Shown piece after piece: positions 4,245 through 50,260 of a DNA stretch of 55,502 nt (the stretch's first letter is position 1; each line of letters starts with the position of its first letter). The notes beneath the pieces were generated by a model that did not search any database, was not told the DNA's origin, and was given only the letters and a program-made list of their open reading frames with translations. The position numbers were made by a program, and so were the translations under genes. The DNA lies in contig JBDLIL010000001.1 of the NCBI GenBank assembly GCA_039714855.1, positions 1 to 55,502 of the forward strand, in the 5' to 3' direction. Source of the stretch: Patescibacteria group bacterium (lineage in GTDB: Bacteria; Patescibacteriota; Microgenomatia; UBA1400; PJMF01).

Positions 4245-4293
4245 GGGGATATTATAGAGTAATTCTTGGGGAAGAAGCAAGGAAAAGATGTAA

Positions 4294-25287: not shown

Positions 25288-25842
25288 ATGAAAATTTTAG
25301 TCCGACTATACCTGTCGTTAGAAAAACTATTTACAAATCCCGTAGCTTGGTCTGCTGAGCAACCATGGGGAATTAGGATGATTTTTGTGCTTATTACTCT
25401 GCCCTTAATTGCTACTAGCAGCATTGTAGTACACGAAAGTTTGGAAGGTGGATCTTCAGAACAAATCAGAGAACTATTAAGTGACAATAAACAGCAAATC
25501 AGTAACTTAAAAGAGGCCTATAAAAAAGATAGCGAAAAACAATTACAAAAAATCGAAGAACTCAATCAAGATATTGATAAATTAAAAATGATAGTCAGTC
25601 AATCATCTCCCAGAGTACTTGGCAGTAGTGAGGAAGAACAAACAAAAATGATTTACGTTTCTAGCAACTTAGAAGAAGTTGAGGTATTGGCCCAAGCTCA
25701 AGAAGGAGCTGAAAAAATTGGTGTTCTACCCGCTAATTCACTTTATTTTTATCTACAAAAACAAGATAGCTGGTATCAAATAGAAATTGATAACAATATA
25801 ACTGGATGGATAAATGACAAATTTGTTATTAAATTTCCCTAA
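25288..25842 (+). CDS. membrane-anchored coiled-coil protein with a C-terminal SH3b-like domain
   Basis: TM at IRMIFVLITLPLIATSSIVV and C-terminus SWYQIEIDNNITGWINDKFV. Start set downstream of the predicted promoter; ATG 25273 and TTG 25204 are alternatives. Confidence 0.5.
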   Translation: MKILVRLYLSLEKLFTNPVAWSAEQPWGIRMIFVLITLPLIATSSIVVHESLEGGSSEQIRELLSDNKQQISNLKEAYKKDSEKQLQKIEELNQDIDKLKMIVSQSSPRVLGSSEEEQTKMIYVSSNLEEVEVLAQAQEGAEKIGVLPANSLYFYLQKQDSWYQIEIDNNITGWINDKFVIKFP

Positions 25843-25873
25843 GAGGATAAGTTCTTTTCCTGCTAAAAAGGCA

Positions 25874-26773
25874 ATGAAGCTGTGTTTGTTGTTTTACAAC
25901 TCCGTTCTAATTTTTATTTTTATCACTGTGGGCATACTGGGTAATAATTTTGACAATTTTGCTCCAGCGCTATTACTACTACCAGTAGGAATTTACTTCG
26001 CAATTTCCCTAAGCAGCAAAATTAGCAAAATCTCCGTAATTGCAAAACACCACAGCTTGGGAAAAATAAAAAATGCCCTATATTTTTATAGTTTGTTAAT
26101 TACTATCTTGCTGATAATTTCTACGGTAATTTATAGTTCCAACTTTTTACAGCTGTTATTTACTCTCATATTTTTACCATTTTTATTCTACTTCCTCAAT
26201 GATTCCTACGATCATAAAAAAATAAAACAAAATTTTCTTTTTCTAGTTAACAATAAGAGTCAAAATTACCAAGCTCCAGTGAAAGATTTGCCTACTATAA
26301 TCGATAAAGAAAATCAACAAATAATAGCTACAAACACCAAAAGTGAAGCTGTTCAGCTAGAAGAAATTACTGAAGACAAGGCTCAAATCAGAGATTATAG
26401 TAGACGAAAATTTCTGAAAATAGTAGGCGGTAGTGGCTTTAGCCTGGTAGTAATGATGTTTTTAATGCCACAAAAAGCTAGTGCTTCATTCTTTGGCAGT
26501 AATCCTGCCCCTGGGTTAGTAAGTATCAAGGATAGTAGTGGCATAAAAATAGACCCAGCAGAAAAAACTCCCACTGATGGTTATACTATTAGTGAAATTG
26601 ATGATGCTAGCAGCCCTAGCTATTATGGGTTTATTCATAAAGATGGAGCCTGGTATATTGCCAAAGAAAGTAGTGCTGGCGCCTATAGATATATAGCCGG
26701 ATCTAGCGATTTTAGCACTAGTTGGACGGGCAGAGCTGGCCTAAGCTATGACTATTTCGACACTGTTTTTTAA
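25874..26773 (+). CDS. hypothetical membrane protein with an internal twin-arginine-type motif and a about 100-aa C-terminal beta-rich domain
   Basis: Several N-terminal TM segments, then SRRKFLKIVGGSGFSLVVMMFLMPQKASA (26399-26419 encodes SRRKFLK). C-terminal motif YYGF..DGAWYI.......YRY.AG...F...W..R..L.Y..F. Confidence 0.5.
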   Translation: MKLCLLFYNSVLIFIFITVGILGNNFDNFAPALLLLPVGIYFAISLSSKISKISVIAKHHSLGKIKNALYFYSLLITILLIISTVIYSSNFLQLLFTLIFLPFLFYFLNDSYDHKKIKQNFLFLVNNKSQNYQAPVKDLPTIIDKENQQIIATNTKSEAVQLEEITEDKAQIRDYSRRKFLKIVGGSGFSLVVMMFLMPQKASASFFGSNPAPGLVSIKDSSGIKIDPAEKTPTDGYTISEIDDASSPSYYGFIHKDGAWYIAKESSAGAYRYIAGSSDFSTSWTGRAGLSYDYFDTVF

Positions 26774-26817
26774 ATTTACTGCTTGTCTAATATTTAATAT
26801 TTAGTAAGATAAAAATT

Positions 26818-27294
26818 ATGAAAATTCCCAAGGAGTATTCTCTTATTTCTATAGTGGGATTATTCTTATTGGCGTATTTACTAGATGCAATAGTTGATCC
26901 ACTCACTTTGCCATTGAAAACTCCCTATCATTTTCTTCAGTCTGAATACATGCTGCAATATCCATTTACTTCAGCATCTTTAATTATTAAAAGCATTGCT
27001 TTATTTTTCTCACCACTTTGGATAATGTCTCTTGTGAGTCAGCGTAGCGTGGCCAAGGCTAGCGTATTACTGATTTTAGCTAGCTTGATGCAACTATATG
27101 CCTTGCAAGAAGTAGCCACCAAAGCTGGCCTCATTCCTCTAGAGTGGTCACTATCACTATCACTAGCAGGAGTAGCACTACTGCTACCCGCGATTATTTT
27201 CTTCATTAGGGGCTTACTACTTACAGCCCACCAAAATATCAGCAATGTCAAAATGGAAGAGGCAATAAAACAAGCTCAGCGAGAGGAAGAATAG
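26818..27294 (+). CDS. hypothetical polytopic membrane protein
   Basis: 158-aa ORF with about 4 hydrophobic segments. Confidence 0.5.
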   Translation: MKIPKEYSLISIVGLFLLAYLLDAIVDPLTLPLKTPYHFLQSEYMLQYPFTSASLIIKSIALFFSPLWIMSLVSQRSVAKASVLLILASLMQLYALQEVATKAGLIPLEWSLSLSLAGVALLLPAIIFFIRGLLLTAHQNISNVKMEEAIKQAQREEE

Positions 27295-27310: not shown

Positions 27311-28168
27311 TTATTTGTGGACTTTGAGAATTTCCATCATGTCTTGGTGACGAGTTTTACTAGCTTCTTTAGACTTCACAGTTTCGTACAAAGATTCTAA
27401 GCTTTGTTTATTTTTAGATATTTCTGCAGAATCTTCACTCTCAGCAACAATCTCTTCTTTTTTTCTAATAAGCTTAATGAGTAAGGCTATTTCTTGCTCA
27501 TCTTTGCTAACTTTTGCTTTTAATTCACCTAAACTGTGCTGTTGTGCTTCCTCAACAGTGACGGGGTTGGTAGGTCTAGCCATACCACCATTCCTTATTG
27601 CAGTTAATTTAGCTGCAGAAACACTTTTAACAGTTTTTACCTTAGAAGTAGCTGTCTTTTTTTTGGATTTACCAGATGTTGATTTAGATGATTTTTTCTC
27701 ACTTGAAGTAGGTTTGTCTTTAGCCGAAACCTTGGCCTTGCTAGTTTTTAGCTTGCCAGGCTTACCTGAAACAGAGTCTTGAATCGGAGCAATAAATTTT
27801 TTTAATAGTTTGTCTTTCAATACCTCAGACAATTTTTCTCTAATATTTTTGCGCGCAACATCATCTGACTCTCTTAAACTAAAATCATTAGCACTAAATT
27901 CTTGTTTGACTTCATCATCGCCTACCTTAATAGTCCAACTTATCTCATGTATATCTTTATTTTTATCCGTTACAAGCAGGTATTGTGCTGAGGCGATAAA
28001 TTTTTCTAAAATTCTTACTTCAATTAGCTTTTTTATTTTTTCTCCGACACTTTCCTCTTCCAATTGATCAAAGTTCTTTATTTCAAGATCCTGAGCAGTA
28101 AATTTACGAGTAATTTTAGCGTCCCCAATTTTTATTGTCCAACTGATTTCACTAATAGACTTACTCAT
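27311..28168 (-). CDS. hypothetical protein: two about 60-aa tandem domains, a Lys/Ser/Thr-rich basic linker and a C-terminal coiled coil
   Basis: ISEISWTIKIGDAKITRKF.A.D...KFIA is repeated as IHEISWTIKVGDDEVKQEF.A.D...KFIA. ATGA start/stop overlap with the upstream 61-aa ORF. Confidence 0.55.
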   Translation of the reverse strand: MSKSISEISWTIKIGDAKITRKFTAQDLEIKNFDQLEEESVGEKIKKLIEVRILEKFIASAQYLLVTDKNKDIHEISWTIKVGDDEVKQEFSANDFSLRESDDVARKNIREKLSEVLKDKLLKKFIAPIQDSVSGKPGKLKTSKAKVSAKDKPTSSEKKSSKSTSGKSKKKTATSKVKTVKSVSAAKLTAIRNGGMARPTNPVTVEEAQQHSLGELKAKVSKDEQEIALLIKLIRKKEEIVAESEDSAEISKNKQSLESLYETVKSKEASKTRHQDMMEILKVHK

Positions 28169-28350
28169 GAGTCAACTCCCTTTGAATCTATAACTATTTT
28201 CTTGGAAATATCGGCCTTTTTTTTCAAACCCTTGATAAGTCCTTTATACTCGGCTATAGTGGCTTCTTCTTTTTCTATCAAATCCTCAAACATTTCAATA
28301 TTTTGCCGGCATTTTTTTATGCCTTGTTTTAGTGCTTTAGGATCGTACAT
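28165..28350 (-). CDS. small coiled-coil protein
   Basis: 61-aa ORF wedged between the 843-aa gene (stop 28353) and the 285-aa gene, with a 4-nt overlap. Confidence 0.45.
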   Translation of the reverse strand: MYDPKALKQGIKKCRQNIEMFEDLIEKEEATIAEYKGLIKGLKKKADISKKIVIDSKGVDS

Positions 28351-28352
28351 GA

Positions 28353-30884
28353 TTAGATGTCGTAGATTGTATCAGTTGTTCTGATAGTTGCAATAGACTG
28401 ACTAGTTCCAGTAGTCTGACCATCCACCTCAAAAGGCTTTATTGGTGTGGTATTAGCAACATTTCGCACCCTAGTCCTAAAATCCAGAGTACTTACATAG
28501 ACAATTGAAGCACTAGCAGTAGAAGTGGCAGCATACTGATCAATTAGTGGTACATAGATATAGTCACTACTAGCAGCTGGCACAATTGGTACGCAATTTA
28601 TCTCAACTGTATTACCACTCGTAGCACTTGTAAAAGCTTTAGTAACGGTTATTTGGGTATCACTATCGACTGACGCCACATACCTTACCTCACTTTGAGT
28701 AGAATTATATACCAAATCTCCTCTTTTTAATGCCGCAGTAAATCCACCAGTACTATATTGCACTGTAGTGGTAGTGCCGCCTGTGGCTGTAAAAGCTGCA
28801 AAGTTAGCTAGAGTAAAGCGACCAGTGCTACCCGCACCACCATTGTTTGCCCAAGAACTAAACCTGATTCGATAATCTTGGTTATCAGTGGCATCTACGA
28901 TTCTCACTACCCCCCCAGCAGATTTACCTGGAGTATCAGCAGTAGCAGCAATAGTAATATCTAGAGTGGCATCACCAATTGCTTCTCCGCCGTAAGCTAC
29001 GTATTCAGTTTTCTTCACACTGCCACTAGATGCAGTTAGCCTAAACATTGCCACCCTATCATCGGTGGTAGTCGCCTCACTTGTCCCTGTCAGGTTAGTA
29101 ACTGTGAGGGTAATAGTAGTTGGCCTTTCCCGTACCGTACCTGTAGCGTCAATTAATTGGAATGAGTTCTCATCTGCACTTAGATAGTTTGTTAGTAATA
29201 CTCCTCTAGCACCAAAGAAGGTCCCACCAGCAAAGGTGCCAAAAGGAGATTGTTTACTAGGTGTAAAGGTAGTAGCCGCTGTATCTGGAGTGAGACTTCC
29301 TGCGCCAGCATCCTGTGAGGTGATGGCGTAAGAAGTACTAAATGTCCCCCTGGCATCCCTCAATAAAAGAACTTTATTGGTAGTATCATGAGAAATTACT
29401 ACTCCAGTGGCTCCGGAAGTAGCTTGCACCACGTTATCTCCTTCAGCGATGGTGCCTCCAGAAACAGTACCTGAATATTTCAGATAAACTTCAGCCCCAA
29501 TATATGCTTCCCCATTAATTCCATCTAGATCATTAGTGGTTTCACCATTTCTGGTAGCGTATTTACACCACTCATAAACTTCTGTCAAAGGATTCTCTTG
29601 ACAATCAATGGTGACGCCATAATACTCATTAGTCCCATCATCATCAATATCAGCAGTAGCAGCCGTAAAACTCACAGTGGGCACAGTGTTATTGGTGTAC
29701 CAAGTTGATAAAGCTGGACCTTGATCGGCAGGCGCACTTGTATTTTTGGTGGCTGAGCCAGTTGCATCTACATCTGTTATCGTCTCTGCCGCTGTACTAA
29801 AGGCAGTCTGCGGATCACCTATCGGATAATAGTGAAGTGTATATGTTGGACTAGAACCAGAAATTAAAGTAAGGATTCCTCTTGCTTCAGACGTTCCCCC
29901 CAGAATTTCATTGCCAACAGTAAAATCGTCTGTGGCTACAGCTGTGGTAGTAATAGATTTGGTCCCAGTGGTGTTATTTAGATCAGAAGAGGCTGAAAGA
30001 GGCACAGGATTACGTCCACCGGATGTATTAGAAGCTTGCAGCTCAAAATTATCATAAAGAGTATTGCCTTTGCGCACAAAAGCTGTCACATAACCGCTAT
30101 CAATAATAGGATTAGATGCAGTAGTGTAATCTCTGATAAAAATACACCTATCATAGGTGCTCTCACTCCACCAATCTTGGGTAGTGTCATTGATGGCTGT
30201 TACCCTAGTTCTATCACCATCGGTGGCAACAGTCCCTTGATAAAAGTAAACGTGAGTGTCGGCTTCGATAGGAGTCACTGTGTAGAAATTAGCCCAAATT
30301 TGCTCACCTGTGGTGGCAGTAGCAGATTGAGCAGATGTGTGTACATTACAAACAAGATCTTGTGCACTATCAAATGAATTGGTGTCAGCATTACTGTCAG
30401 GTCTAATAACTAGATAGTCAGTGCTACCACTAAAATTAATCACCTCCAACAAGGTCCCTGTGTCAGCAACGGTTTGACCTACAATGTCATTACCTACATC
30501 CGCTGCAACAATGGCACCACCGGAAGTAACGGGAGCAACCACTATCCCGATCGTTCCACTTCCAGTTCCAGTCAGAGGATTTCTGGTCCAACCACTGGTT
30601 TTTAGAGCTCCACCAGTAATGTGCTGCATGCAATCGTAAGTGATATACCAGGGATCTAAGTCACCAGCATCGATAATACCAATGGTGTACTCCACTGGAG
30701 TCTGGGCAGACATCACCGAACCATCATCCATTTGGATACTTTCATCCATCAAGTCCGCTAGGGCAGAGTAAACATCATTGATATCTTGAGTCCCTGTAGT
30801 GCTACCCGTCCAGGTAAGTGATTTTTGTCTATTTTCTCCAAGGTATGAAACGGTAATATCGCCACCGAGAATTGTATCAGACAT
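28353..30884 (-). CDS. 843-aa Thr/Ser/Gly/Ala/Asp-rich, Lys-poor fibre-like protein with no signal peptide or TM
   Basis: Long uninterrupted ORF that is visibly more GC-rich than its neighbours. Its N-terminal module resembles the 174-aa ORF at 48355-48879. Four about 40-aa modules of type (V/I)G..I.G..S.A.G.L..I....Y.L.....G.F. AGAGGG Shine-Dalgarno sequence upstream. Confidence 0.7.
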   Translation of the reverse strand: MSDTILGGDITVSYLGENRQKSLTWTGSTTGTQDINDVYSALADLMDESIQMDDGSVMSAQTPVEYTIGIIDAGDLDPWYITYDCMQHITGGALKTSGWTRNPLTGTGSGTIGIVVAPVTSGGAIVAADVGNDIVGQTVADTGTLLEVINFSGSTDYLVIRPDSNADTNSFDSAQDLVCNVHTSAQSATATTGEQIWANFYTVTPIEADTHVYFYQGTVATDGDRTRVTAINDTTQDWWSESTYDRCIFIRDYTTASNPIIDSGYVTAFVRKGNTLYDNFELQASNTSGGRNPVPLSASSDLNNTTGTKSITTTAVATDDFTVGNEILGGTSEARGILTLISGSSPTYTLHYYPIGDPQTAFSTAAETITDVDATGSATKNTSAPADQGPALSTWYTNNTVPTVSFTAATADIDDDGTNEYYGVTIDCQENPLTEVYEWCKYATRNGETTNDLDGINGEAYIGAEVYLKYSGTVSGGTIAEGDNVVQATSGATGVVISHDTTNKVLLLRDARGTFSTSYAITSQDAGAGSLTPDTAATTFTPSKQSPFGTFAGGTFFGARGVLLTNYLSADENSFQLIDATGTVRERPTTITLTVTNLTGTSEATTTDDRVAMFRLTASSGSVKKTEYVAYGGEAIGDATLDITIAATADTPGKSAGGVVRIVDATDNQDYRIRFSSWANNGGAGSTGRFTLANFAAFTATGGTTTTVQYSTGGFTAALKRGDLVYNSTQSEVRYVASVDSDTQITVTKAFTSATSGNTVEINCVPIVPAASSDYIYVPLIDQYAATSTASASIVYVSTLDFRTRVRNVANTTPIKPFEVDGQTTGTSQSIATIRTTDTIYDI

Positions 30885-31028
30885 AATTATTTCCCTCTTT
30901 AATTTAGGTCTTTAGATAAATTTGATAATTAAATACTATCATTTCCAGCATACTAAGTGCAACAAGCTAGTTTGAATTCTTTACCACAAGATATTGGTTT
31001 CAGTTTGGTAGCTAGGTGACAAGTCTAT

Positions 31029-32318
31029 TTACCCAAACTCTTCTCGCAATTTTTTACTTTCAACCAATCCGTCAAAGCCTTCACTTGCTCTTTTCCGGTA
31101 AAGTTTTTTGTCTTTTTTTTCTACTCCCTTGCCTTTGCCAACGGCCTTTTTGTGATCTACTTCCATCATAATGGCATTTTCGGCATAAACATAGGCCCTT
31201 TGCTCTTTGGCAATTTGAGTCAGCTCAGTATCAGCGTAGTGAGATCCATATCCAGGATGAAATAAATTTCCACCATAAAGTTGCTTGTACCAACCTCGTT
31301 GTACCAAGCCAAAACTAGCCAGTCTACCACTCCACTTACCATCATTAAATCCTACTAATCCAGCACCAATAAGTAACATTTCAGTCAGGGCATTTTTTAG
31401 CCAACCTTGTCCTACCAAGGCGTCTTGTGCGGTGTAAACAATTAATTCAGGTTTATTTGCTTTAACATAATCATTAATAATTTTAATGAAGCCTTCTTTT
31501 TTATCATCCATAATAATTTTAATTTGACATGAGATCCCGGCTCTAGCCACCATAGTTTTGGCGGCTTGCGCAGCTTGACTTTCATCAGTAGCAGGCATGA
31601 GTACATGCACTTGGGGTATAGATACATTCTCAATTCTAAAAATCTTTCGCTGCTCAGCTAACCAATCTTCCTGGGTGATAAGCTTCTTGGTGAAATGCTT
31701 GGCTCTGACACTTCCGTGCAACTTGATACTCAAACCTATTTTTTTTGCTTCCAAACAAAATTTTAGATCATGACTTTCTTTATCAGAAATATTCTTTATA
31801 GGTATGTGAAAATTAGAGCCGTATGCAGTCCATTTTTCATCACCTAATTTCTTGTAAGTATTCATGCTCACCATCATCCCACCATAACCGACAGCTGCAA
31901 CTTCATAAATATGATTAGACTTAATCAAGGGAGGATGAATGGTAGTAAAAGTAGTATCAGTATCATTTCTTTCCTCATAAGCTGCAGGCAAATATGGCTT
32001 GCTGCGTTTGAAATAAAGACAACCAATAATATCTAAGTTTCCACCTAAATTTGGAATTTCTAAATATTTTTCAATGATATCGACCGGATAGATCATGTCA
32101 GTATCCAGCCACAAAATATAATCCACATTCCCAGCATCTAAGGCTTTTTTTAGAATATTGTTACGATTAGCATCAGTTCTAACACCCTGACTATGTGAGA
32201 CAGAAATTTTTAGATCAGGAATTTTTGCTCGTGAATAGTCAATAATCTGAAGAAGATTTTCCAGAGCGAAATCGGGGTCAACAACAGCTGGACTGGGCAA
32301 ACCAATAAGTATGTGCAT
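31029..32318 (-). CDS. two-domain glycosyltransferase (N-terminal GT-A/GT2-like with DxD; C-terminal second GT-like half)
   Basis: MHILIGLPS...NRNNILKKALDAGNVDYILWLDTDMIYP matches the GT-A signature. The second half is VHVLMPATDES....ELIVYTAQDALVGQGWL. Confidence 0.65.
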   Translation of the reverse strand: MHILIGLPSPAVVDPDFALENLLQIIDYSRAKIPDLKISVSHSQGVRTDANRNNILKKALDAGNVDYILWLDTDMIYPVDIIEKYLEIPNLGGNLDIIGCLYFKRSKPYLPAAYEERNDTDTTFTTIHPPLIKSNHIYEVAAVGYGGMMVSMNTYKKLGDEKWTAYGSNFHIPIKNISDKESHDLKFCLEAKKIGLSIKLHGSVRAKHFTKKLITQEDWLAEQRKIFRIENVSIPQVHVLMPATDESQAAQAAKTMVARAGISCQIKIIMDDKKEGFIKIINDYVKANKPELIVYTAQDALVGQGWLKNALTEMLLIGAGLVGFNDGKWSGRLASFGLVQRGWYKQLYGGNLFHPGYGSHYADTELTQIAKEQRAYVYAENAIMMEVDHKKAVGKGKGVEKKDKKLYRKRASEGFDGLVESKKLREEFG

Positions 32319-32338
32319 ATAAGCTGATCTATATAATT

Positions 32339-34024
32339 TTAAGCATTTGGGTCTTCTTGCAAAGTTACTGCCAAATTCAGACCTGTACTTGAAGCTATAG
32401 TGGCAGTAGTGCTATATGAAATATATTTAGTATCTCCTGTAGAACTCTTTCTAACTCTCACATAGCAGGCAGCAGGAGTTGACCCTCCAAATGACCCCGA
32501 AGCAACTCCAGAAGCATTAGTATCAGCATTAAGAACCTCAGAGTCATCGGAAGTTAAATGCACAGAAGTCTGAGCAGTGGCAATCGGATCTGTATCAGCA
32601 TCAGTAACAGTAATGGTTATGGAGACAGAGACATTAACAGTAGTGGTAGCACCTACACCATTTCTAATCGAAGGGCTGTCCCCCCCAGTAATATTCAAAA
32701 TCAAAGCCTTGCCAGAATTATTGTAAATCATAGCATCAGTGGAACCGCTGCTGGAAACTAAATTTGATCCAGGAGTACCTCCAAAAGCACCTGTGTAAGT
32801 AAGGCTCGTGACTGCATGAGTAGTAGGACTAGCTGCATGAGCAGAAGTCAGCTCAATAGCGTGGCCATCACTAAAAGCAAAAGTTGAGCTCGTAATCTTA
32901 GTGATGTCATCACAAGTAATAAAAGCTACCCCATCAGCTGTAGTTGAACCCGCAACGACAGCTCCGCTAATAGTTGCACTGGCTTGGGTTAAGCTTTCAC
33001 AGCTATTTAAGGTATTACTAGAAAAAGTAACTCCACTGGTTAATACTATGGCATTAAAATTGGTAAAGGCACAGCTATCAACTGTTAGGGCACCAGAGGT
33101 CCCAGTCACCCCAAAATCAGGCCTGGTATCGGCTGTAGCTCCATCTGCTCCATAGGAGCCCTTGCCTACCATGGTGATAGTAGTAAGAGAAATGACAGAG
33201 TTTGTGTTGGCTAGTGACACATCAATCCCGCAAAAACCAGTATCAACATAATTATCAGGAAAAATTATAGCTTGACTAGAATCAGTAAAGTCGGTTTCGG
33301 TAGATGAGCCAATGGTCAGGACACCCACTACAAAGTAAACACCCTCTACAGAATTGCAGAGGCCATAGCGATTAGTGGAAGTACCCTGGTCAAAAGACTG
33401 AAAGTCTGCGAAGGTGCCATCGGCATCAGCTCCATCGCCACCAACTAAAGTCAGACCAGTACCATGAGTGATGTAATCGATAGCATCCATGGCGACGTTT
33501 TCTGACTTAGCAGTAGCAACGGTCATAGTGGCCATCCAAGCTACCCAATTTATAGCTGTTTGAGAAACTGTGTTAGTTTCTGAGAAAGCATGACCCTCAA
33601 CATTAGGGTCCACCGCAATTACTTGCCAACTGCCTGTAGACGGATACTCAGGAGTTCCTCCGGGACCATATAAATGTCTGTATTTAAAATAAGCACTTCT
33701 TCTACCACCACTACCCACTTCAATATTAGCCCCTGAACCTGCTGTGGTTTCAAGAATACCAACTGTTGTAACAACACACTTGAGAATAAGCACCCGCTTG
33801 GTAGTAGCCATATCTAATGCTGTATCTGGAACCCAACCAATACCTAGTTCGGATCCTTTGACTTTTTCTGATACTGAGTAAGTATTCTGGTAAACAAAAT
33901 CAGGTTCTTGAGCTGCTGCACCACCGCCTGTATCTTCCCAGTCCCCCCCATAAGGAGAAGTTGGAGCTAGTGCTTCTGCGTCCGTCCATCTGGTGCCATC
34001 AAAAGAGACTGATACAGCTGCCAT
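32339..34024 (-). CDS. 561-aa Lys-poor protein with parallel beta-helix-like repeats and no signal peptide or TM
   Basis: Repetitive about 22-aa segments (..CAFTNFNAIVLTSGVTFSSNTLNSCESLTQASATISGAVVAGSTTADGVAFITCDDITKITSSTFAFSDGHAIELTS..) typical of pectate-lyase-fold or tailspike-like proteins. Confidence 0.65.
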   Translation of the reverse strand: MAAVSVSFDGTRWTDAEALAPTSPYGGDWEDTGGGAAAQEPDFVYQNTYSVSEKVKGSELGIGWVPDTALDMATTKRVLILKCVVTTVGILETTAGSGANIEVGSGGRRSAYFKYRHLYGPGGTPEYPSTGSWQVIAVDPNVEGHAFSETNTVSQTAINWVAWMATMTVATAKSENVAMDAIDYITHGTGLTLVGGDGADADGTFADFQSFDQGTSTNRYGLCNSVEGVYFVVGVLTIGSSTETDFTDSSQAIIFPDNYVDTGFCGIDVSLANTNSVISLTTITMVGKGSYGADGATADTRPDFGVTGTSGALTVDSCAFTNFNAIVLTSGVTFSSNTLNSCESLTQASATISGAVVAGSTTADGVAFITCDDITKITSSTFAFSDGHAIELTSAHAASPTTHAVTSLTYTGAFGGTPGSNLVSSSGSTDAMIYNNSGKALILNITGGDSPSIRNGVGATTTVNVSVSITITVTDADTDPIATAQTSVHLTSDDSEVLNADTNASGVASGSFGGSTPAACYVRVRKSSTGDTKYISYSTTATIASSTGLNLAVTLQEDPNA

Positions 34025-34025
34025 A

Positions 34026-34541
34026 TTAGTTGTTGTTTATTTTCAATTTATAAATTTCCATGTTTCCCAAGTTTCCCATAAAGTCACCCATGATTTGTGA
34101 TGATCTTGATTTTATTTTCTGATTGAGTACAACGTAGTCACCTTTACCCTTTTTTAGATTATCGTAATCGACAATTATAGCTGGCAAATTAAATTTATTG
34201 ATCATTTCCATGATAATTGATTTGCCAGTGATTTTGTGGGCGTCTTTTCTGACATCAAGCACAAATATCCACTTGCCGCCATTAAAGTCACTAATAGTTA
34301 GCATGACTCCGCTTTTATCTGGTCTACTTTCTACGGTACCAAAACCTCTTTTCCAAGCGCATTCAAAAGTACTACAAATTTTTGGTCTTTTTTTGCTGCC
34401 AAAAATACTACATCTTTTTTTACCACTTTTCGTTAAATACTGACAAGCTACACAAGCTGGTTTATTAAATTCACCTTCTTTGACTTCAGCCACCACGCAA
34501 CAAACACCACATTCACCGCATTGTCGCCTGCCGTTCTTCAT
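34026..34541 (-). CDS. YkgJ-type CxxCxxCC cysteine-cluster protein (putative Zn/Fe-binding)
   Basis: MKNGRRQCGECGVCCVV... plus further Cys pairs (CVACQY, CSTFECAW). ATG 34541 chosen because the cluster normally sits near the N-terminus. The longer ORF to 34682 would overlap the divergent gene. Confidence 0.6.
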   Translation of the reverse strand: MKNGRRQCGECGVCCVVAEVKEGEFNKPACVACQYLTKSGKKRCSIFGSKKRPKICSTFECAWKRGFGTVESRPDKSGVMLTISDFNGGKWIFVLDVRKDAHKITGKSIIMEMINKFNLPAIIVDYDNLKKGKGDYVVLNQKIKSRSSQIMGDFMGNLGNMEIYKLKINNN

Positions 34542-34605
34542 AATTTTTTTATACAACGAATTATAGATGTTTTTATAGGGGTAAATTGTATTATACTGAA
34601 GAAAC

Positions 34606-36861
34606 ATGAGGATATCTATCCAATCTTTTTTGCTTATATTTTTGCTTGCAATAGGCCTTACTGTCTTCGTGAGCGGGCTCATTGTTCAACCGATTGATGC
34701 AGCAGTGACTTCGTGCACTGCTAGCGTTAACATTAGCTCTGCACAGCCAAATACGAGTGCGACCTTCATCTTCACTATCAACAATACTGACTCTGTTGAT
34801 ATGCGGTGGTTTAAAATCACCCAGCCATTTACTGGAGTTAATGCTACCTCCATAGGAATAGGTGGATGGACTAAAGAAAACAATACTACTAATAGCGTTA
34901 TCTATGGAGGAACTCTGAACCCTAGTGGAAGCATTAACCCAGAGGTAACAAATACAATTGGCGACATTGCTGGCTCTTCAGGAAATTGGACAATAGAAGC
35001 CTCAGACGATGTGAGCGGAGCTAATCCTTTTACTTGCAGCGGTAGCTTGGGACTAACTATCACTAGTGAAGCTGCTGATACAACAGCCCCAGTAATTTCA
35101 AGCATTGCGGTAAGTAACATTACTACTTCTCAGGCAACCATAACATGGACGACTGATGAAAATTCAAACTCATTTATCGGGTATGGAGTGGAGTCTGAGA
35201 TCTACTCTTTTTCAAAAAGTGATGACACCATGACGACCTCGCATAATTTAACTTTAGACACCAGTATTGCGGCTAATACTACTTATTACTACTATCTTTG
35301 TAGTAGCGACACTGCGGGTAATCAAGCTTGTTCAGGCGAGGGCTCGTTTACTACTGCTAGTGCTGGCAGTACCACCACTACTACTTCCACCACTACCACC
35401 ACTACTGTCACTGCTACTCCCACACCCACTCCCACACCCACCCCAGTACCAGTAGATAAAACTCCTCCACGAGTCACTATTAAAACTGATCTGTCAACAC
35501 CATTTGAATTGGCACCTGTTATAACTGGAAGAGCAACTGACAATAAAGCTGTTACTAGCATTGAATACTCCACTGATGGAGGTAAAAATTGGCTGCCAGT
35601 AGATGAAATCGGGTCTGTAGGCACTAGTAAAACTGATTTTGAATTCGCACCCTTCTTAAATGAAGATGGTAACTATCCCATTCAAGTTAGAGCTCAAGAT
35701 AAGCGAGGAAATACCGGTAAATCTAAAGAAATAATTCTAGTGATCGACCGTTTGCCACCGTTGGTAGGAGGCAATTTGATTTCTATGGGACCTCAGCCAT
35801 TAATGCCAAATAATGGCGGAACAGTAGTAGCCTTAGCCGGATTAGAACAAAAAATTACTTTGTCAGCAGTCGGCGGACCTACTGCTATCGATCTATTTGT
35901 AGGTGAACAAAAAATTCCTTTAGAATACTCACCAGAAACTAGCCTTTGGTCTGGCTTTTTAGATCTAAATAAAGTTGGCACTTATACTTTAACCACCAAA
36001 GCTATAGATGGAGCCAAGAATAAAACCACTCGAAATTTAAACACTGTTCAAGTGGTTAAAGCTGGGAAAATTATCGACCAAAAAACTGGCTTGGCAATAA
36101 ATAAAGGCAAAATAAAAGTGTTTACTCAGAATGCTCAAACTCAACTCTGGAATCTTTGGGATGCCAAAGCATTTAGTCAATCAAATCCGCAAACTTTAGA
36201 TAGTGATGGACGTTACCAATTTTTTCTACCGCCTGGAACTTACTACCTTCAAATTGAATCAGCAGGTTTCACAACTGCAAAAAGTCAAATTTTTATTTTG
36301 GGTAAATCACGACCAATCAATGCTGATTTTGCATTAGAAGATGGTAGAGCTATCAGATTAGGACCACTGAAATTAGCCTTACCAAGTTTTTTACAGAAAA
36401 CCTTAAAAATTGATTTAACTCTGCCTGAAATTGAAAACTCAGTAACAAATAATTCAAATCTAATAGGAGAAATAGCTGCCAACTTTTCTTTAACGGATGA
36501 AGGAGAGCAATTTGATTTGTCAAATTTACGAGGTCAAACTAGTATTGTCTCCTTCGTTAGTACTTGGTCACCTCCAGCAATTGAACAGATTTCAATTATT
36601 AACCAACTTGCAAAAAGCCGTTCACTGCCAGTTGTGATGGTAACTACTCAAGAAACAAAATCAAAACTAGCTATTTTTCGCCAGCGAGGCAATTACCAAA
36701 CTCCTATTTGGGTTGATCCAGATGGTGAGCTAGTAGAAAAATATCAACTTGCCACCTTACCAACTCATTTTGTCTTAGATAGAAGAGGCAAAATCGTCCA
36801 AATCTTAACTCAAGTTTTGAATGAAAGTCAGTTTTCAGCACTTTTATTGGCTGCTTATTAG
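34606..36861 (+). CDS. 751-aa secreted multidomain protein (unknown N-domain, FN3-like, Thr/Pro linker, Ig-like, CarboxypepD_reg-like, C-terminal redoxin fold without CxxC)
   Basis: Signal peptide MRISIQSFLLIFLLAIGLTVFVSG. FN3-like APVISSIAVSNITTSQATITWTTDE. DSDGRYQFFLPPGTYYLQIESAGF. TlpA-like end has STWSPPA where WCxPC is expected. Confidence 0.75.
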   Translation: MRISIQSFLLIFLLAIGLTVFVSGLIVQPIDAAVTSCTASVNISSAQPNTSATFIFTINNTDSVDMRWFKITQPFTGVNATSIGIGGWTKENNTTNSVIYGGTLNPSGSINPEVTNTIGDIAGSSGNWTIEASDDVSGANPFTCSGSLGLTITSEAADTTAPVISSIAVSNITTSQATITWTTDENSNSFIGYGVESEIYSFSKSDDTMTTSHNLTLDTSIAANTTYYYYLCSSDTAGNQACSGEGSFTTASAGSTTTTTSTTTTTTVTATPTPTPTPTPVPVDKTPPRVTIKTDLSTPFELAPVITGRATDNKAVTSIEYSTDGGKNWLPVDEIGSVGTSKTDFEFAPFLNEDGNYPIQVRAQDKRGNTGKSKEIILVIDRLPPLVGGNLISMGPQPLMPNNGGTVVALAGLEQKITLSAVGGPTAIDLFVGEQKIPLEYSPETSLWSGFLDLNKVGTYTLTTKAIDGAKNKTTRNLNTVQVVKAGKIIDQKTGLAINKGKIKVFTQNAQTQLWNLWDAKAFSQSNPQTLDSDGRYQFFLPPGTYYLQIESAGFTTAKSQIFILGKSRPINADFALEDGRAIRLGPLKLALPSFLQKTLKIDLTLPEIENSVTNNSNLIGEIAANFSLTDEGEQFDLSNLRGQTSIVSFVSTWSPPAIEQISIINQLAKSRSLPVVMVTTQETKSKLAIFRQRGNYQTPIWVDPDGELVEKYQLATLPTHFVLDRRGKIVQILTQVLNESQFSALLLAAY
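35371..35446 (+). repeat. low-complexity Thr/Pro-coding tract (T-run plus TPTPTPTP linker)
   Basis: accaccactactacttccaccactaccaccactactgtcactgctactcccacacccactcccacacccacccca. Confidence 0.8.
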
Positions 36862-47920: not shown

Positions 47921-48094
47921 CTAATCTTCTTTAACATCTTTTAGAGCTTTATCAAACTCTTTTTTTGCTTTTTTTAACTCTTTGCCAGATTCACCTAAAC
48001 CCCTAGCCAATTCAGGTAATTTTTTACCCCCAAACAAAAACAAAATCACTAAAGCAACCACGATCAGCTCAGTAGAACTAACACTATTTAACAT
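47921..48094 (-). CDS. tatA: TatA/E-family protein, paralogue 1 (57 aa)
   Basis: Hand translation: MLNSVSSTELIVVALVILFLFGGKKLPELARGLGESGKELKKAKKEFDKALKDVKED. AAGGAG Shine-Dalgarno sequence 8 nt upstream. Below the ORF-track length cutoff. Confidence 0.75.
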   Translation of the reverse strand: MLNSVSSTELIVVALVILFLFGGKKLPELARGLGESGKELKKAKKEFDKALKDVKED

Positions 48095-48115: not shown

Positions 48116-48280
48116 TTACTTATCTTCCAAAGCCTTGTTAAGATCTTTCTTTGCTTTTTTTAACTCTTTGCCAGATTCACCTAAACCTTTAGCGATTTTA
48201 GGCAACTTTGCTCCTCCAAACAGAATCAAAAGCAAAGAAAACATAATAAGGATTTCCATCCAACCAATATTTGCAAACAT
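48116..48280 (-). CDS. tatA: TatA/E-family protein, paralogue 2 (54 aa)
   Basis: Hand translation: MFANIGWMEILIMFSLLLILFGGAKLPKIAKGLGESGKELKKAKKDLNKALEDK. GGAGG Shine-Dalgarno sequence upstream. Confidence 0.7.
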   Translation of the reverse strand: MFANIGWMEILIMFSLLLILFGGAKLPKIAKGLGESGKELKKAKKDLNKALEDK

Positions 48281-48354
48281 TACAACCTCCAATTTTTCAT
48301 TTAGTATTAAAATTAATAGTAGCTTAGTTTTTTAAATAAATAAAGTCTTATTTA

Positions 48355-48879
48355 TTATTTTAGCGAAGCTAGAGTTGCCTTGGTCTTGATATCTTTGATA
48401 GCTTTTCCTGTAGTACCAGTATTTAAGTGACTGGCTAATATTTCTTCCCACACGGCTGCTGGAACACTAGTATCAAGCCCTGTCATTAATTTATCGTGCT
48501 CTGCAGTGGTAAGAGCAGAACCACCTGTAACCAAAGTAGAAGCTGCTGATTGAATTAGTTTAACTTGAACTCCGGCAGTGTAAGCAACAGGCCCATCGGT
48601 AGTGTGACCACCTACCAGGTTACCACCAACAATTGAAGCAGTATAACTACCCGACCAAAAACGCAGTTGCCAATCTGGGTCCAGAGTTAAAGTAATCCCA
48701 GTAGTAACTCCACCACCCAAGTCATCTTTACCTGTGGCATCACAAATTCTGGGAAAAGCCATTCCTCTAATGGATTGCTCCTCTTCTCGAATAGCATTGA
48801 ACAAATCCTGCACATCTACATCCACTTGCGGACTGACAACATCAATAATCTGGTTAATATGATCAAATGTATATGCCAT
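48355..48879 (-). CDS. 174-aa leaderless fibre-module-like protein
   Basis: MAYTFDHINQIIDVVSPQVDVDVQDLFNAIREEE...LDPDWQLRFW...IVGGNLVG..TDG and C-terminal LTTAEHDKL...AAVWEEILASHLNTGTTGKAIKDIK. From memory this resembles the N-terminal adaptor plus a conserved motif of phage tail-fibre-type proteins. Confidence 0.6.
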   Translation of the reverse strand: MAYTFDHINQIIDVVSPQVDVDVQDLFNAIREEEQSIRGMAFPRICDATGKDDLGGGVTTGITLTLDPDWQLRFWSGSYTASIVGGNLVGGHTTDGPVAYTAGVQVKLIQSAASTLVTGGSALTTAEHDKLMTGLDTSVPAAVWEEILASHLNTGTTGKAIKDIKTKATLASLK

Positions 48880-50254: not shown

Positions 50255-50260
50255 AAATTT

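Follow-up and report, generated by a model that had tools for sequence, protein, structure and literature searches.

A putative phage-type virion-appendage cassette resident in a Patescibacteria chromosome

Introduction

Six adjacent minus-strand genes on a contig from a Patescibacteria (CPR) bacterium with a tiny genome raise the question of whether a set of leaderless, beta-rich proteins represents a piece of phage, a component of the cell envelope, or a phage structure that has been taken over by its host. The first-pass annotation of the window (i.e., the whole 55,502-nt stretch analyzed here) proposed a six-gene operon encoding fibre-like proteins, host-encoded and possibly domesticated, with a role at the cell surface. 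We examined the layout, composition, predicted structures, homologs, and genomic contexts of these genes. In our assessment, there is roughly an even chance that the region is a chromosomal, long-resident, and probably domesticated copy of a phage-type virion-appendage cassette.

Gene layout and composition

All six minus-strand ORFs were recovered at the coordinates previously assigned to them, with the same junctions (1, 20, 144, and 2 nt, followed by a 4-nt ATGA overlap). The features of the module are as follows:

34590-34618, minus strand: promoter-like TAGATA-17-TATAAT, agreeing at 10 of 12 consensus positions (a consensus match alone)
34026-34541, minus strand: Cys171, a CxxCxxCC cysteine-cluster protein (MKNGRRQCGECGVCC...), first gene of the module
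32339-34024, minus strand: p561, a leaderless acidic protein of 561 aa, variable partner in the cassette
31029-32318, minus strand: GT429, a predicted two-domain glycosyltransferase
30885-31028, minus strand: gap of 144 nt containing a strong AAAGAGGG ribosome-binding site plus a weak TTGCAC-18-TAGTAT motif
28353-30884, minus strand: p843, a leaderless, acidic, all-beta, multi-domain protein, conserved core of the cassette
28165-28350, minus strand: p61, a K/E-rich protein of 61 aa, always directly 3' of p843
27311-28168, minus strand: p285, a basic protein (17.5% Lys), lineage-specific last gene

The start of Cys171 at 34541 (171 aa) agrees with the lengths of its homologs (167-175 aa), and the best promoter-like site of the module (34618-34590) lies about 50 nt upstream of it. 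The TTGCAC-18-TAGTAT motif suggested earlier as a promoter is indeed found in the 144-nt gap, but it agrees with the consensus at only 7 of 12 positions and falls below the threshold of our promoter scan, in which promoter-like sites across the region were no commoner than in shuffled sequences.

As annotated, p561 and p843 are poor in Lys (2.0 and 1.8%, respectively) and rich in T, S, G, A, and D (together 52-54%), and neither has a hydrophobic stretch at its N-terminus or any segment of TM grade. Both have a pI of 4.2. Low Lys content is a feature of the whole family (median 2.1%), and Lys accounts for 6-13% of most neighboring proteins. The reported GC excess of the two genes is real (0.44 vs. 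about 0.36), but it is confined to codon positions 1 and 2, and their GC3 (0.30-0.31) is the same as that of host genes. Therefore, the GC content of p561 and p843 mirrors amino-acid composition and gives no signal of foreign DNA. The contig is purely cellular (AlaRS, L10, L7/L12, BipA, and similar genes), and a search of the 55.5-kb window, including the genes adjoining the module, identified no capsid, portal, terminase, sheath, tube, or integrase gene and no tRNA, consistent with the earlier account.

The conserved protein p843 and its variable partner p561

No match to p843 was found in Pfam, PHROG, NCBIfam, or PDB. Its AlphaFold2 model (pLDDT 87.5, pTM 0.73) retrieved only generic beta-sandwich domain strings and phage structural proteins in Foldseek, at TM of about 0.1. 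Homologs are nevertheless numerous, with at least 647 at 90% clustering and 761 representatives among 1.84 billion proteins; the best 120 homologs listed are 785-868 aa long and 54-63% identical to p843. Four repeated modules had been described in this protein, among which residues 314-385 and 472-540 are homologous (hhalign 93%, E 3e-7), whereas the other pairs (E 0.01-0.4) are not supported as repeats. In CPR genomes, p843 is under strong purifying selection (dN/dS of about 0.03 in four CPR pairs). Its conservation exceeds that of TatC: in two Woesebacteria, the p843 proteins are 83% identical and the TatC proteins 42% identical. This is the opposite of what is typical of a receptor-binding fibre. 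The description of p843 as fibre-like therefore does not hold, as the protein is modeled as a compact multi-domain beta protein; its conservation is far too high, and its predicted monomer too compact, for a classical receptor-binding fibre.

The higher-scoring p561 model (pLDDT 91.3, pTM 0.87) opens with a galactose-binding-like jelly-roll, continues through a beta-helix in the middle, and ends in a CnaB/CarboxypepD_reg-like sandwich. The short strands in series at residues 244-371 are as expected of the beta-helix previously proposed from repeats. The best Foldseek match is the turret head protein of HFTV1 (8qpg_TA; 178 columns, E 4e-4, rmsd 3.9), and other matches include CBM, CnaB, AlgG, and pectate-lyase folds; no family match was found in Pfam, PHROG, or PDB. 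Homologs of p561 (n = 183) vary in length between 450 and 900 aa and share conserved ends, and at almost every locus the gene is next to that of p843.

Alternatively, p561 and p843 might make up a glycosylated S-layer, or a different principal lattice of the CPR cell envelope: both are acidic all-beta proteins of several domains, rich in Thr, Ser, Gly, and Ala, and encoded next to a glycosyltransferase gene, and weak Foldseek matches to the S-layer proteins Sap and SlaB were obtained. However, these matches reach just TM 0.06-0.15, neither p561 nor p843 matches a characterized S-layer or adhesin family, and both a signal peptide and a known anchoring domain are absent. S-layer proteins evolve fast, which is at odds with a p843 more conserved than TatC. 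In addition, a lattice role would leave unexplained the occurrence of these genes in phage morphogenesis modules, as described below, and we consider this explanation highly improbable.

An ordered cassette in tailed phages

Four of the six module genes (those for the Cys-cluster protein, p561, p843, and p61) belong to a cassette that also includes a fifth partner, here called cl1. The core consists of p561, p843, and p61, often preceded by the Cys-cluster protein, and the order p561-like, p843, p61, cl1 recurs in 61 IMG/VR phage loci, so that the phage-like character once proposed from protein properties is now supported by homology. Genes for terminase, portal, major head protein, protease, and sheath are located within 10 kb of the cassette in these loci; the 132 genes neighboring phage cassettes include those for terminases, portals, head protease, and sheath, and capsid, neck, and tail genes are also present. 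For example, S77 protease, Gp23, T4 gp13, and sheath genes adjoin the cassette in one T4-like contig, a major head protein (phrog_2522) is encoded near it in L034, and a Phage-tail_3/Rcc01698 tail-tip protein in L008. Across many tailed phages that are not related to one another, the cassette shares the orientation of the morphogenesis module in which it lies, and this gene position suggests that the phage homologs are located in the virion.

The smaller proteins show different degrees of attachment to the cassette. Cys171 matches phrog_9155 (E 4e-9), and its match to PF03692 (E 0.19) is below the family cutoff. Its homologs are encoded directly upstream of p561 homologs both in CPR loci (L006, L007, and L102; 46-59% identity) and in phage loci (L019, L023, L031, L060, and L063; about 31-32%), and it is likely an accessory or modification factor. 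Homologs of p61 (n = 34) occupy the equivalent position in phage and CPR loci; it is presumably a helical protein and may be an assembly factor. By contrast, the exact six-gene order is not kept in relatives, and the proposed six-gene operon stands only for its core, since GT429 and p285 are not conserved partners and the fifth partner lies 14 kb away. The p285 protein, with two N-terminal repeats of about 60 aa and a Lys/Ser-rich tail, forms a cluster of its own among the 1977 locus proteins; its sole phmmer matches are marginal (E 0.003), to proteins of about 105 aa at the equivalent position in Levybacteria-type loci.

GT429 comprises a GT-A/GT2 domain with a DTD motif (residues ~20-235) and a conserved C-terminal domain with no recognized fold (residues ~240-429), for which, at about 190 aa, no relatives were detectable. 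The protein matches phrog_12406 ("glycosyltransferase," E 4e-10) and scores 20.2 bits against PF00535, below the cutoff of 23.3. Its homologs (n = 172) are all about 405-435 aa long, many of them with PF00535 or PF03452. The nearest relatives (52-57%) follow capsid genes in SU10-like podovirus contigs of 36-38 kb, and over residues 22-221 the N-domain shares 25% identity with glycosyltransferases of mycobacteriophages (Zelink, Redno2, and others). Judging from these relatives, GT429 appears to be a phage-type glycosyltransferase. As it is missing from every other cassette locus examined and, like p285, is not conserved with the cassette, glycosylation of the cassette proteins is a guess.

The cassette in CPR chromosomes

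About 25 CPR genomes were found to carry the cassette, one of them a complete Beckwithbacteria chromosome, with carriers among Saccharibacteria, Roizman-, Beckwith-, Woese-, Levy-, Gottesman-, and Daviesbacteria, and WWE3. These chromosomes keep the cassette intact without any other phage gene. Together with the cellular contig and a GC3 ameliorated to that of the host, this agrees with the earlier view that the module is host-encoded and is not an ordinary prophage. Retention under purifying selection bears out part of the suggested domestication, and domestication itself is probable.

It is possible that the module is instead a decaying prophage remnant, or recent phage cargo, without a cellular function. 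Every recognizable affinity of the six genes is to phage genes, the p843 copy of the window falls in a phage-dominated clade, and insertions of transposase, toxin-antitoxin (AbiE-type), and AAA_14 genes are common within CPR cassette loci. However, decay is difficult to reconcile with six intact ORFs joined by tight or overlapping junctions, a GC3 equal to that of the host, and a contig lacking an integrase gene, an att-like tRNA, and any further phage gene. The core is kept across many CPR lineages at the low dN/dS given above, and the closest Patescibacteria relative retains the Cys-cluster, p561, and p843-like genes amid metabolic genes. We therefore regard a non-functional remnant as very doubtful.

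The transfer may have gone either way between phages and CPR bacteria, as copies of the two are interleaved in the neighbor-joining tree of p843. On a cellular origin, the cassette would have begun long ago as a complex of the CPR envelope or one associated with Tat, and phages would have taken it up as auxiliary cargo from the host, much as cyanophages did with psbA. In that case p843 would not be a virion part, and phages might use the module to remodel or mask the surface of an infected cell or to prevent superinfection. In favor of this reading, the Microgenomates copies group in a single clade and their synteny is stable, and the fixed length and extreme conservation of p843 suit a part of a cellular machine over a phage fibre. 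The cassette also differs in position among phage architectures, as mobile cargo would, and p843 is absent from the cultured phages in INPHARED. On the other hand, many cassette-bearing phage contigs are 137-452 kb long, including T4-like and jumbo types, and such phages are unlikely to infect ultra-small cells with 1-Mb genomes, which makes derivation from CPR awkward. The co-orientation of phage cassettes within morphogenesis modules is a further difficulty, as is the resemblance of the subunits, all leaderless with MA..T-type N-termini, to phage structural proteins. The window and Saccharibacteria copies, moreover, are nested inside the phage-dominated clade. A cellular origin is thus unlikely in our judgment.

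Association with Tat and membrane proteins

The fifth partner and several membrane-associated genes are located elsewhere in the window:

48355-48879, minus strand: p174, the conserved fifth partner of the cassette (cl1 family), 14 kb from the module
48116-48292 and 47921-48094, minus strand: tandem tatA genes directly downstream of p174 (translations ...LFGGAKLPKIAKGLGESGKELKKAKK and ...LFGGKKLPELARGLGESGKELKKAKK)
53862-54044, minus strand: tatA
53106-53843, minus strand: tatC, of the TatC cluster common to 22 CPR loci
49844-50254, minus strand: PrsW-family intramembrane protease (PF13367, E 1.7e-5, above the cutoff)
50261-52831, minus strand: 856-aa protein with an N-terminal signal peptide, a coiled coil, and a C-terminal TM anchor
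25814-26773, plus strand: cl16, conserved CPR membrane protein with N-terminal TM helices and a conserved C-domain of about 95 aa
26818-27294, plus strand: cl11, conserved CPR membrane protein with four TM helices

The cl1 family is present in 58 of 69 sources (68 loci plus the window), about 2.7 kb downstream of p843, with lengths of 167-1071 aa and a Beta_helix/NosD center. The p174 protein (4.6% Lys, pI 4.8) retains the N-terminal domain of about 165 aa and the C-terminal 38 aa or so and has no central beta-helix; its alignment with the 432-aa CPR proteins encoded after p843 and p61 covers residues 1-167 and 397-434 of the latter (E down to 3e-35). Given the length range, conserved ends, and beta-helix centers of p561 and cl1, we infer that both partners have the character of variable spikes.

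In CPR genomes, the usual order on one strand is p843, p61, cl1, tatA, tatC, and TatC is encoded within 10 kb of the cassette in 22 of 30 genome loci. The order cl1, tatA, tatC is likewise seen in CPR loci, and PF00902 and PF02416 are recorded for homologs of the window's tat genes in L001. This synteny across CPR is a lead on the export route, which the first-pass annotation had left without a candidate. The families of the PrsW protease and the 856-aa protein (clusters 6 and 7) are common to 16 CPR loci, in which they follow tatC, and synteny alone would tie them to the cassette. The cl16 and cl11 genes flank the module and co-occur with the cassette in L001/L069, L006, L007, L076, L078, and others. 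Downstream of its N-terminal TM helices, cl16 contains an internal twin-arginine-type motif (SRRKFLK, followed by an h-region and ASA), which is the sole RRxFLK-type motif with a hydrophobic stretch in the whole window, only two genes from the module, and thus the window's only candidate Tat signal. No twin-arginine, Sec, or TM signal was found in the cassette proteins.

Since the products are leaderless, their default location is the cytoplasm, and the host copies might act there against phages, as decoys or poison subunits that disturb the assembly of incoming cassette-bearing phages. Genes of the AbiE toxin-antitoxin type and AAA_14 genes are concentrated at the cassette loci, and phage and host copies are 55-63% alike, close enough for co-assembly. 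However, such a role would not explain the operon-like tie to tatA/tatC and membrane proteins across CPR, and extreme conservation is unlike that of arms-race genes. We find this explanation very unlikely.

A possible route to the cell surface

If the region is a domesticated appendage cassette, p843 may form a conserved hub or scaffold, onto which p561 and cl1 would dock by their conserved terminal domains as exchangeable beta-helix or carbohydrate-binding "spike" subunits. The p61 protein could be a small assembly factor comparable to phage fibre chaperones, and GT429, perhaps along with Cys171, may modify the subunits. The complex would fold in the cytoplasm, as phage appendages do, and in CPR cells the adjacent Tat translocase for folded proteins might deliver it to the envelope, a link suggested by synteny only. 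As the subunits carry no signals, delivery may be piggy-back on the RRxFLK membrane protein cl16. A surface or adhesin role would follow, with the complex binding or degrading polysaccharide of a partner cell. The cassette is thus a candidate means by which CPR episymbionts build a surface attachment structure.

Comparison with known systems

Some phage tailspike and depolymerase complexes are built on a conserved adaptor, e.g., in CBA120 and other Ackermannviridae, whose tailspikes form branched sets, in G7C gp63.1/gp66, and in the SP6/K1-5 adaptor system. The cassette resembles these sets in that the conserved p843 is flanked by exchangeable beta-helix proteins (p561 and cl1) with conserved docking ends, and in that leaderless, acidic proteins are encoded in phage morphogenesis modules. 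By contrast, its proteins match none of them in sequence or fold, the p843 hub (about 830 aa) is far more conserved, and the cassette is also a stable CPR chromosomal locus beside tatAC. Domesticated phage structures such as tailocins (R/F pyocins), eCIS/PVC particles, and gene transfer agents retain an entire tail or head, including sheath, tube, baseplate, or capsid, and cell lysis sets them free. Like them, the cassette comprises phage structural genes in a chromosome, under purifying selection and without replication or packaging genes; unlike them, the appendage cassette alone is kept, as there is no sheath, tube, or capsid gene in the window, and its conserved neighbor is a protein translocase.

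The galactose-binding-like jelly-roll of p561 is shared with the HFTV1 turret head gp31 (PDB 8qpg), for which the HFTV1 authors propose that this domain binds host glycans in an initial, reversible contact (bioRxiv 10.1101/2024.12.09.627619). However, the match is limited to a generic CBM-type domain (identity 15%), and the two proteins differ beyond it, gp31 having a deacetylase domain there and p561 a beta-helix followed by a CnaB-like domain. GT429 can be aligned through its N-domain with glycosyltransferases of mycobacteriophage structural regions, and its nearest relatives lie directly 3' of podovirus capsid genes. Modification of virion proteins is known for mycobacteriophages, and the post-capsid position of these GT429 relatives fits such a role; GT429 differs in its extra conserved C-terminal domain (about 190 aa) and in its location in a bacterial chromosome.

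In Tat hitchhiker export, a signal-less subunit is carried by a twin-arginine partner, e.g., HybC/HybO of E. coli hydrogenase-2 and DmsB/DmsA. The proposed cargo would similarly be signal-less, pre-folded, and encoded beside tatA/tatC near an RRxFLK protein, but the RR motif of cl16 lies within the protein, behind its N-terminal TM helices, and the cargo would be of great size (843 aa in this genome, with relatives reaching 2295 aa). Finally, small phage fibre-assembly chaperones such as T4 gp57A and lambda/Mu Tfa are encoded directly 3' of the fibre gene. Although Pfam and PHROG searches revealed no sequence similarity of p61 to these chaperones, the small, K/E-rich p61 may be analogous to them, being encoded invariably right after p843.

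The Six Module Genes and Their Composition

All six minus-strand open reading frames (ORFs) of the module are found at the positions given by the first-pass annotation, and the junctions between them measure, as it had described, 1, 20, 144 and 2 nt, followed by a 4-nt overlap. In gene order, with names taken from family or length, they are:

34026-34541, minus strand, Cys171, a Cys-cluster protein
32339-34024, minus strand, p561
31029-32318, minus strand, GT429, a glycosyltransferase
28353-30884, minus strand, p843
28165-28350, minus strand, p61
27311-28168, minus strand, p285

For Cys171 the short start at 34541 is correct, as it fits the 167-175 aa of homologues. The TTGCAC-18-TAGTAT motif that had been read as an intergenic promoter is present, but it matches at only 7/12 positions and is indistinguishable from chance, promoter-like sites in the region being no commoner than in shuffled sequence. 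The region's best such site is TAGATA-17-TATAAT at 34618-34590, just upstream of the Cys171 start.

The descriptions of p561 and p843 as Lys-poor and leaderless hold, with Lys at 2.0% and 1.8%, respectively, vs. 6-13% in most neighbouring proteins, and with both an N-terminal hydrophobic segment and a transmembrane (TM)-grade stretch absent from the two proteins. Low Lys is typical of both whole families (median 2.1%), and the window proteins have a pI of 4.2 and a T+S+G+A+D content of 52-54%. Their reported GC richness is real (0.44 vs. ~0.36), but the excess is confined to codon positions 1 and 2. Since GC3 of the two genes (0.30-0.31) is the same as that of host genes, the excess is a matter of amino-acid composition and is ruled out as a sign of recent transfer. 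We use "cassette" for the p561-like gene, p843, p61 and a fifth partner family, cl1, often with a Cys-cluster protein ahead of the p561-like gene; the window's copy is intact and compositionally at home.

p843 and Its Relatives

Neither p843 nor its family profile has a match in Pfam, PHROGs, NCBIfam or PDB sequences. Its relatives number at least 647 at 90% clustering; the best 120 listed share 54-63% identity and are 785-868 aa long (most 825-850), and all the named ones are "hypothetical." An HMM scan of 1.84 billion representative proteins (50% identity) gave 761 matches at E ≤ 1e-3, 344 of them at E ≤ 1e-30. Among these matches are giant leaderless proteins with up to six or seven p843-matching stretches, mostly at profile positions 395-680 (P0384, 4263 aa; P0492, 3159 aa; P0465, 2250 aa; and others). 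Of the four modules described within p843, the pair 314-385/472-540 is homologous (hhalign 93%, E 3e-7), and the remaining pairs are marginal. PDB-sequence queries with single sequences, family profiles, the GT429 C-terminal domain alone and a profile of the repeated p843 module returned only chance matches for p843, p561 and GT429 (cysteine synthase and complement receptor), which were rejected.

The AlphaFold model of p843 is confident (pLDDT 87.5, pTM 0.73), all-beta and multi-domain, and p843 is predicted as a monomeric string of beta domains, not a fibre. Foldseek matched the model only to generic strings of Ig-like/beta-sandwich domains in the PDB (TM about 0.06-0.10) and, in BFVD, to large phage structural proteins (baseplate wedge, DUF4815, VrlC, LamG-like; TM about 0.06-0.13). 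Matches at such low TM fit a generic "phage structural protein" and no specific family. An S-layer is one of the main rival explanations, and fold matches to the S-layer proteins Sap and SlaB were obtained, but these are only at the generic beta-sandwich level, and the lack of a signal or a Pfam anchoring domain (SLH, CWB2 and the like), together with very slow evolution, argues against it. A conserved docking part joined to a fast-varying receptor-binding part is not seen in p843, given the narrow length and identity range of the listed homologues and a dN/dS of 0.03, and we infer that p843 is a conserved hub, too conserved and compact for a receptor-binding fibre.

The Variable Partners p561 and cl1

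Searches with p561 and its family profiles likewise found no match in Pfam, PHROGs, NCBIfam or PDB sequences; PF13229 is matched by some p561 homologues, although the window protein itself has no Pfam match. Its AlphaFold model (pLDDT 91, pTM 0.87) runs from an N-terminal jelly-roll through a beta-helix-like core at 244-371 to a C-terminal CnaB/CarboxypepD_reg-like sandwich. By Foldseek, the jelly-roll is closest to 8qpg_TA (E 4e-4), the turret head protein of the HFTV1 capsid, in a part that is described as carbohydrate-binding (bioRxiv 10.1101/2024.12.09.627619). The cl1 proteins consist of a conserved N-domain of ~165 aa and a variable beta-helix centre, and the window member, p174 (48355-48879, minus strand), is a cl1 protein without that centre. 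Both families thus combine conserved termini, the putative docking domains, with a rapidly varying part, and they vary widely in length, from about 450 to 900 aa among the 183 p561 relatives and from 167 to 1071 aa in cl1. In INPHARED, which covers cultured and GenBank phages, the single p561 match is Virus Rctr197k; the possibility that large neighbours of its p561-like gene are unrecognized p843 relatives was rejected at hhalign probabilities of 0.4% and 0.07%.

Accessory Genes

GT429 was correctly recognized as a two-domain glycosyltransferase, and it is of phage type. It scores 20.2 bits against PF00535, under the 23.3 cutoff, matches phrog_12406 at 4e-10, and carries a DTD motif in the stretch ILWLDTDMIYP. 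Its relatives, about 172 in number and all ~405-435 aa long, in many cases match PF00535 or PF03452 (including 40-57% homologues with PF00535), and GT429 is very probably, on these motif and profile matches, a GT-A enzyme. The N-domain shares 25% identity with mycobacteriophage glycosyltransferases, and for the C-terminal ~190 aa no relatives could be detected beyond the family. The closest relatives (52-57%) lie directly after capsid genes on 36-38-kb SU10-like podovirus contigs (L099, 8560-9843; L100, 10001-11284). There, methyltransferase, UDP-glucose dehydrogenase, epimerase and RGP-type genes adjoin the glycosyltransferase, in what looks like a compact phage-encoded virion-glycosylation island. 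GT429 is absent from the other cassette loci examined, so that its acceptor is a guess.

Cys171 has the described CxxCxxCC motif (CGECGVCC), scores 12.9 bits against PF03692 (cutoff 23), and matches NCBIfam YcgN at E 0.037 and phrog_9155, of unknown function, at 4e-9; p285 is an orphan. The NCBIfam search gave nothing useful for these genes.

The Cassette in Phage Genomes

The phage-type affinity proposed for these proteins is borne out by a pattern scan of IMG/VR, in which 61 loci encode homologues of the cassette within phage morphogenesis modules. In nearly all 61, the p561-like gene adjoins p843, usually directly upstream; in many, a p61 homologue lies 3' of p843, followed by cl1, and a subset has a Cys171 homologue ahead of p561. 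Neighbouring genes include terminase, portal, MCP, gp13 neck, sheath and a gpJ-like protein, and a PHROG batch scan of 132 neighbouring genes identified terminases, portals, major head proteins, a head protease and sheath. On a 169-kb contig the cassette sits between Gp23/S77-protease and T4 gp13/sheath genes, on a 446-kb contig after the major head protein, and on a 137-kb contig after a Phage-tail_3/Rcc01698 tail-tip protein. These loci are from genuine phages. No p843 was found in 50,697 GenBank phage records (INPHARED), and among phages the family is therefore confined to uncultured ones.

Two further features of the phage loci deserve mention. The 137-kb contig (IMGVR_UViG_3300027852_000032) holds two cassette copies ~60 kb apart (L008 and L009), whose p843 proteins share 97% amino acid identity at dS 0.33 and whose cl1 proteins share only 83%; this divergence would fit one conserved hub with two spike sets in a single phage. 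Where the Cys-cluster protein is absent, the slot before the p561-like gene is filled by unrelated families of ~140 aa (clusters 22, 42 and 48), found in L003, L011, L021, L036, L043 and L055-L057, in L017, L025, L049 and L053, and in L001 and L004. Their recurrence suggests alternative accessory factors at the cassette head.

The Cassette in Patescibacteria Chromosomes

At 55,502 bp, the window spans a whole contig from a MAG that bears the label "Patescibacteria group bacterium," and a Pfam scan of essentially all its sizeable ORFs returned cellular families only, including AlaRS, ribosomal proteins L10 and L7/L12, BipA, SOD, sortase, LemA, a Mur ligase fragment, MFS, two-component systems, TatC and PrsW. 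No tRNA and no Rfam match was found in the window. As the first-pass annotation had noted, capsid, portal, terminase, sheath and integrase genes are all absent, and so is any att-like tRNA target of the kind that marks a prophage. Sheath, tube and baseplate genes, as carried by tailocins and extracellular contractile injection systems (eCIS), were found neither in the window nor, judged by gene clusters, in the cassette loci of Patescibacteria (CPR). The window copy thus sits among cellular genes, unlike its phage homologues in morphogenesis modules.

The same contig holds other candidate surface proteins. Beside the module, a 751-aa secreted protein (34606-36861, plus strand) joins fn3, Big_13 and CarboxypepD_reg-like domains to a C-terminal AhpC/TSA-Redoxin domain, apparently an extracellular, surface-array-like peroxiredoxin fusion; a homologue lies beside the cassette in WWE3 (L092). 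At 1116-4280 (minus strand), a sortase (316 aa) adjoins a 732-aa acidic protein with a weak GlxA beta-barrel match, a separate and conventional candidate surface-protein system.

Scanning one genome per GTDB species yielded 30 loci, mostly CPR: Saccharibacteria, Roizman-, Beckwith-, Woese-, Levy-, Gottesman- and Daviesbacteria, WWE3 and unclassified Patescibacteria. The Beckwithbacteria carrier is a complete 1.05-Mb genome (CP011210.1). Clustering of all locus genes revealed a recurrent co-directional string: a p561-like protein or a leaderless giant of 2,045-2,295 aa, a protein of ~85 aa, p843 (800-980 aa), a protein of ~135 aa, p61 or a ~105-aa protein, a protein of ~280 aa, cl1 (~432 aa, Beta_helix/NosD), tatA, tatC, a PrsW-family protease, and a ~850-aa protein with a signal, a coiled coil and a TM segment. 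The ~85-aa protein is homologous to the first ~90 residues of p843. It is in Levybacteria-type loci (L081-L090, cluster 36) that the giant stands in for p561 upstream of p843. The cassette of CPR chromosomes is homologous to that of phage morphogenesis modules and collinear with it.

The proposed six-gene operon is upheld in its core but not in its exact order. The closest Patescibacteria relative of the window p561 is in locus L102, where LytR_C, Cys171 (59%), p561 (52%) and a p843-like gene (37%) lie amid metabolic genes and the glycosyltransferase, p61 and p285 are lacking; the core is thus conserved, and the exact six-gene order is not.

In CPR chromosomes, insertions cluster between the variable gene and p843 (L075, L077, L078, L095; L001/L069 9147-9800), and they include AbiEii/AbiEi-like toxin-antitoxin pairs (assigned by eye), AAA_14/DUF4143 ATPases (by Pfam for the L006 member) and an IS200-type Y1 transposase. 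CPR-type cassettes were also recovered from MAGs, several of them TPA records, labelled "uncultured Gammaproteobacteria" (L082-L084, L086-L088, L090, L094), "Pseudomonadales" (L079) and "Altiarchaeales" (L070). L083 and Levybacteria L085 share 94% amino acid identity in p843 and 95% in cl1, and the taxonomic labels or contig binning of the non-CPR-labelled MAGs are, from sequence comparison, probably wrong.

Evolution of p843

In four closely related CPR pairs, p843 has a dN/dS of 0.031-0.034, as low as or lower than that of TatC (0.026-0.072). Between two Woesebacteria, p843 is 83% identical, compared with 42% for TatC and 35% for the 850-aa neighbour. Constraint also bears on the idea that the window copy is a dead prophage remnant; this is the least likely explanation, because the ORFs are intact, GC3 is that of the host, and p843 is constrained.

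In a neighbour-joining tree of p843, the Microgenomates chromosomal copies form one clade. The window p843 is sister to the Saccharibacteria copy, and the rest of the clade around these two consists mostly of phage contigs; a third CPR group (L079, L081) and the paralogues L007/L089 are placed elsewhere. These scattered placements imply that phage-cell exchange happened more than once, and it may have run in either direction; a CPR cellular complex captured by phages is one of the main rival explanations.

The Link to Tat Genes

TatC lies within 10 kb of the cassette in 22 of the 30 genome loci. Saccharibacteria (L069) and WWE3 (L092) both keep the order p843 ... cl1, tatA, tatC with p843 proteins from different clades, which suggests in-place replacement of p843 with the neighbourhood retained. 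In CPR, then, the cassette is retained, constrained and syntenic with Tat genes. The window has the parts of the string split in two on the same strand, the module at 27.3-34.5 kb and a Tat part at 47.9-54.0 kb comprising tatA, tatC, an 856-aa protein, PrsW, a RibD_C-like gene, p174 and two more tatA genes. The Tat genes are:

47921-48094, minus strand, tatA paralogue
48116-48292, minus strand, tatA paralogue
53106-53843, minus strand, tatC
53862-54044, minus strand, tatA paralogue

This very small genome thus has three tatA genes and one tatC no more than 6 kb apart, and in Saccharibacteria (L001/L002) four TatA_B_E genes surround the cassette. It is unusual to find Tat expanded in this way where no redox-enzyme cargo is obvious nearby. 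TatA and TatC have been reported in Microgenomatia, Paceibacteria and Saccharimonadia (PMC9166423).

The window's PrsW-family intramembrane protease (136 aa) is paired, at 49844-52831 (minus strand), with the 856-aa protein, which has a signal peptide, a long coiled coil and a TM anchor. The pair follows tatC in 16 CPR loci and may belong to the same envelope system or may simply be syntenic. Two membrane proteins, cl11 and cl16 (25814-27294), flank the module and accompany the cassette in six or more further CPR genomes. One of them, cl16 (25814-26773, plus strand), holds the window's only SRRKFLK + h-region + ASA motif, which is internal. Its layout of N-terminal TM helices, internal twin-arginine-type signal and ~95-aa conserved C-domain (FFGS.P.PG...YDYFD.VF) recalls membrane proteins inserted by Sec and Tat together.

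An N-terminal twin-arginine signal is absent from p561, p843, p174, p61, Cys171, GT429 and p285 of the window. Across families, a twin-arginine-type motif in the first 60 residues occurs in none of the p843, cl1 and p61 clusters and in 1/62 p561-family members, and we reject the cassette proteins as Tat substrates by their own signals. No export signal of any kind was found in the window cassette proteins, and an intracellular role, as a decoy or in defence, is another of the main rivals. Involvement of Tat is proposed because of gene order and the twin-arginine motif of the neighbouring cl16, and export is the weakest link of our interpretation.

Interpretation and Significance

We infer localisation, assembly and function as follows. 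p843 would act as a conserved hub on which p561 and cl1 dock via their conserved ends, p61 would assist assembly, the glycosyltransferase might modify subunits, and the pre-folded complex would reach the CPR cell surface through Tat. Put more broadly, in a reading that we regard as speculative and on balance improbable, CPR episymbionts and tailed phages would have in common one exchangeable host-surface recognition module. It would be assembled in the cytoplasm from the p843 hub and swappable beta-helix, depolymerase-like spikes, exported pre-folded and signal-less via a dedicated expanded TatA/TatC, possibly piggy-backed on cl16, and would bind or digest the envelope polysaccharide of the partner cell. 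If true, this shared-module reading would add a novel class of Tat cargo and give episymbiont attachment a molecular basis.

Apart from type IV pili in a few cultured Saccharibacteria, little is known of how the ultra-small CPR bacteria recognize and attach to partner cells. The widely conserved, completely unannotated gene set identified here is a concrete candidate for CPR attachment, and the tatA/tatC link supplies a specific, testable export hypothesis. In phages, the cassette amounts to a conserved module of uncultured T4-like, siphovirus-like and jumbo types, captured by none of the reference phage databases or PHROG families. p843 itself surpasses TatC in conservation across CPR classes, is shared with phages, and merits a name and a structure even should the surface-appendage reading fail.

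We found no description of the cassette family in Pfam, PHROGs, NCBIfam, the PDB or the searchable literature, where we covered CPR Tat cargo, CPR S-layer proteins and phage-derived adhesins in Patescibacteria. Domesticated phage structures are a known kind of system; what is new here is an appendage-only cassette that occurs across CPR classes, is strung with a folded-protein translocase, and is common to several phage architectures.
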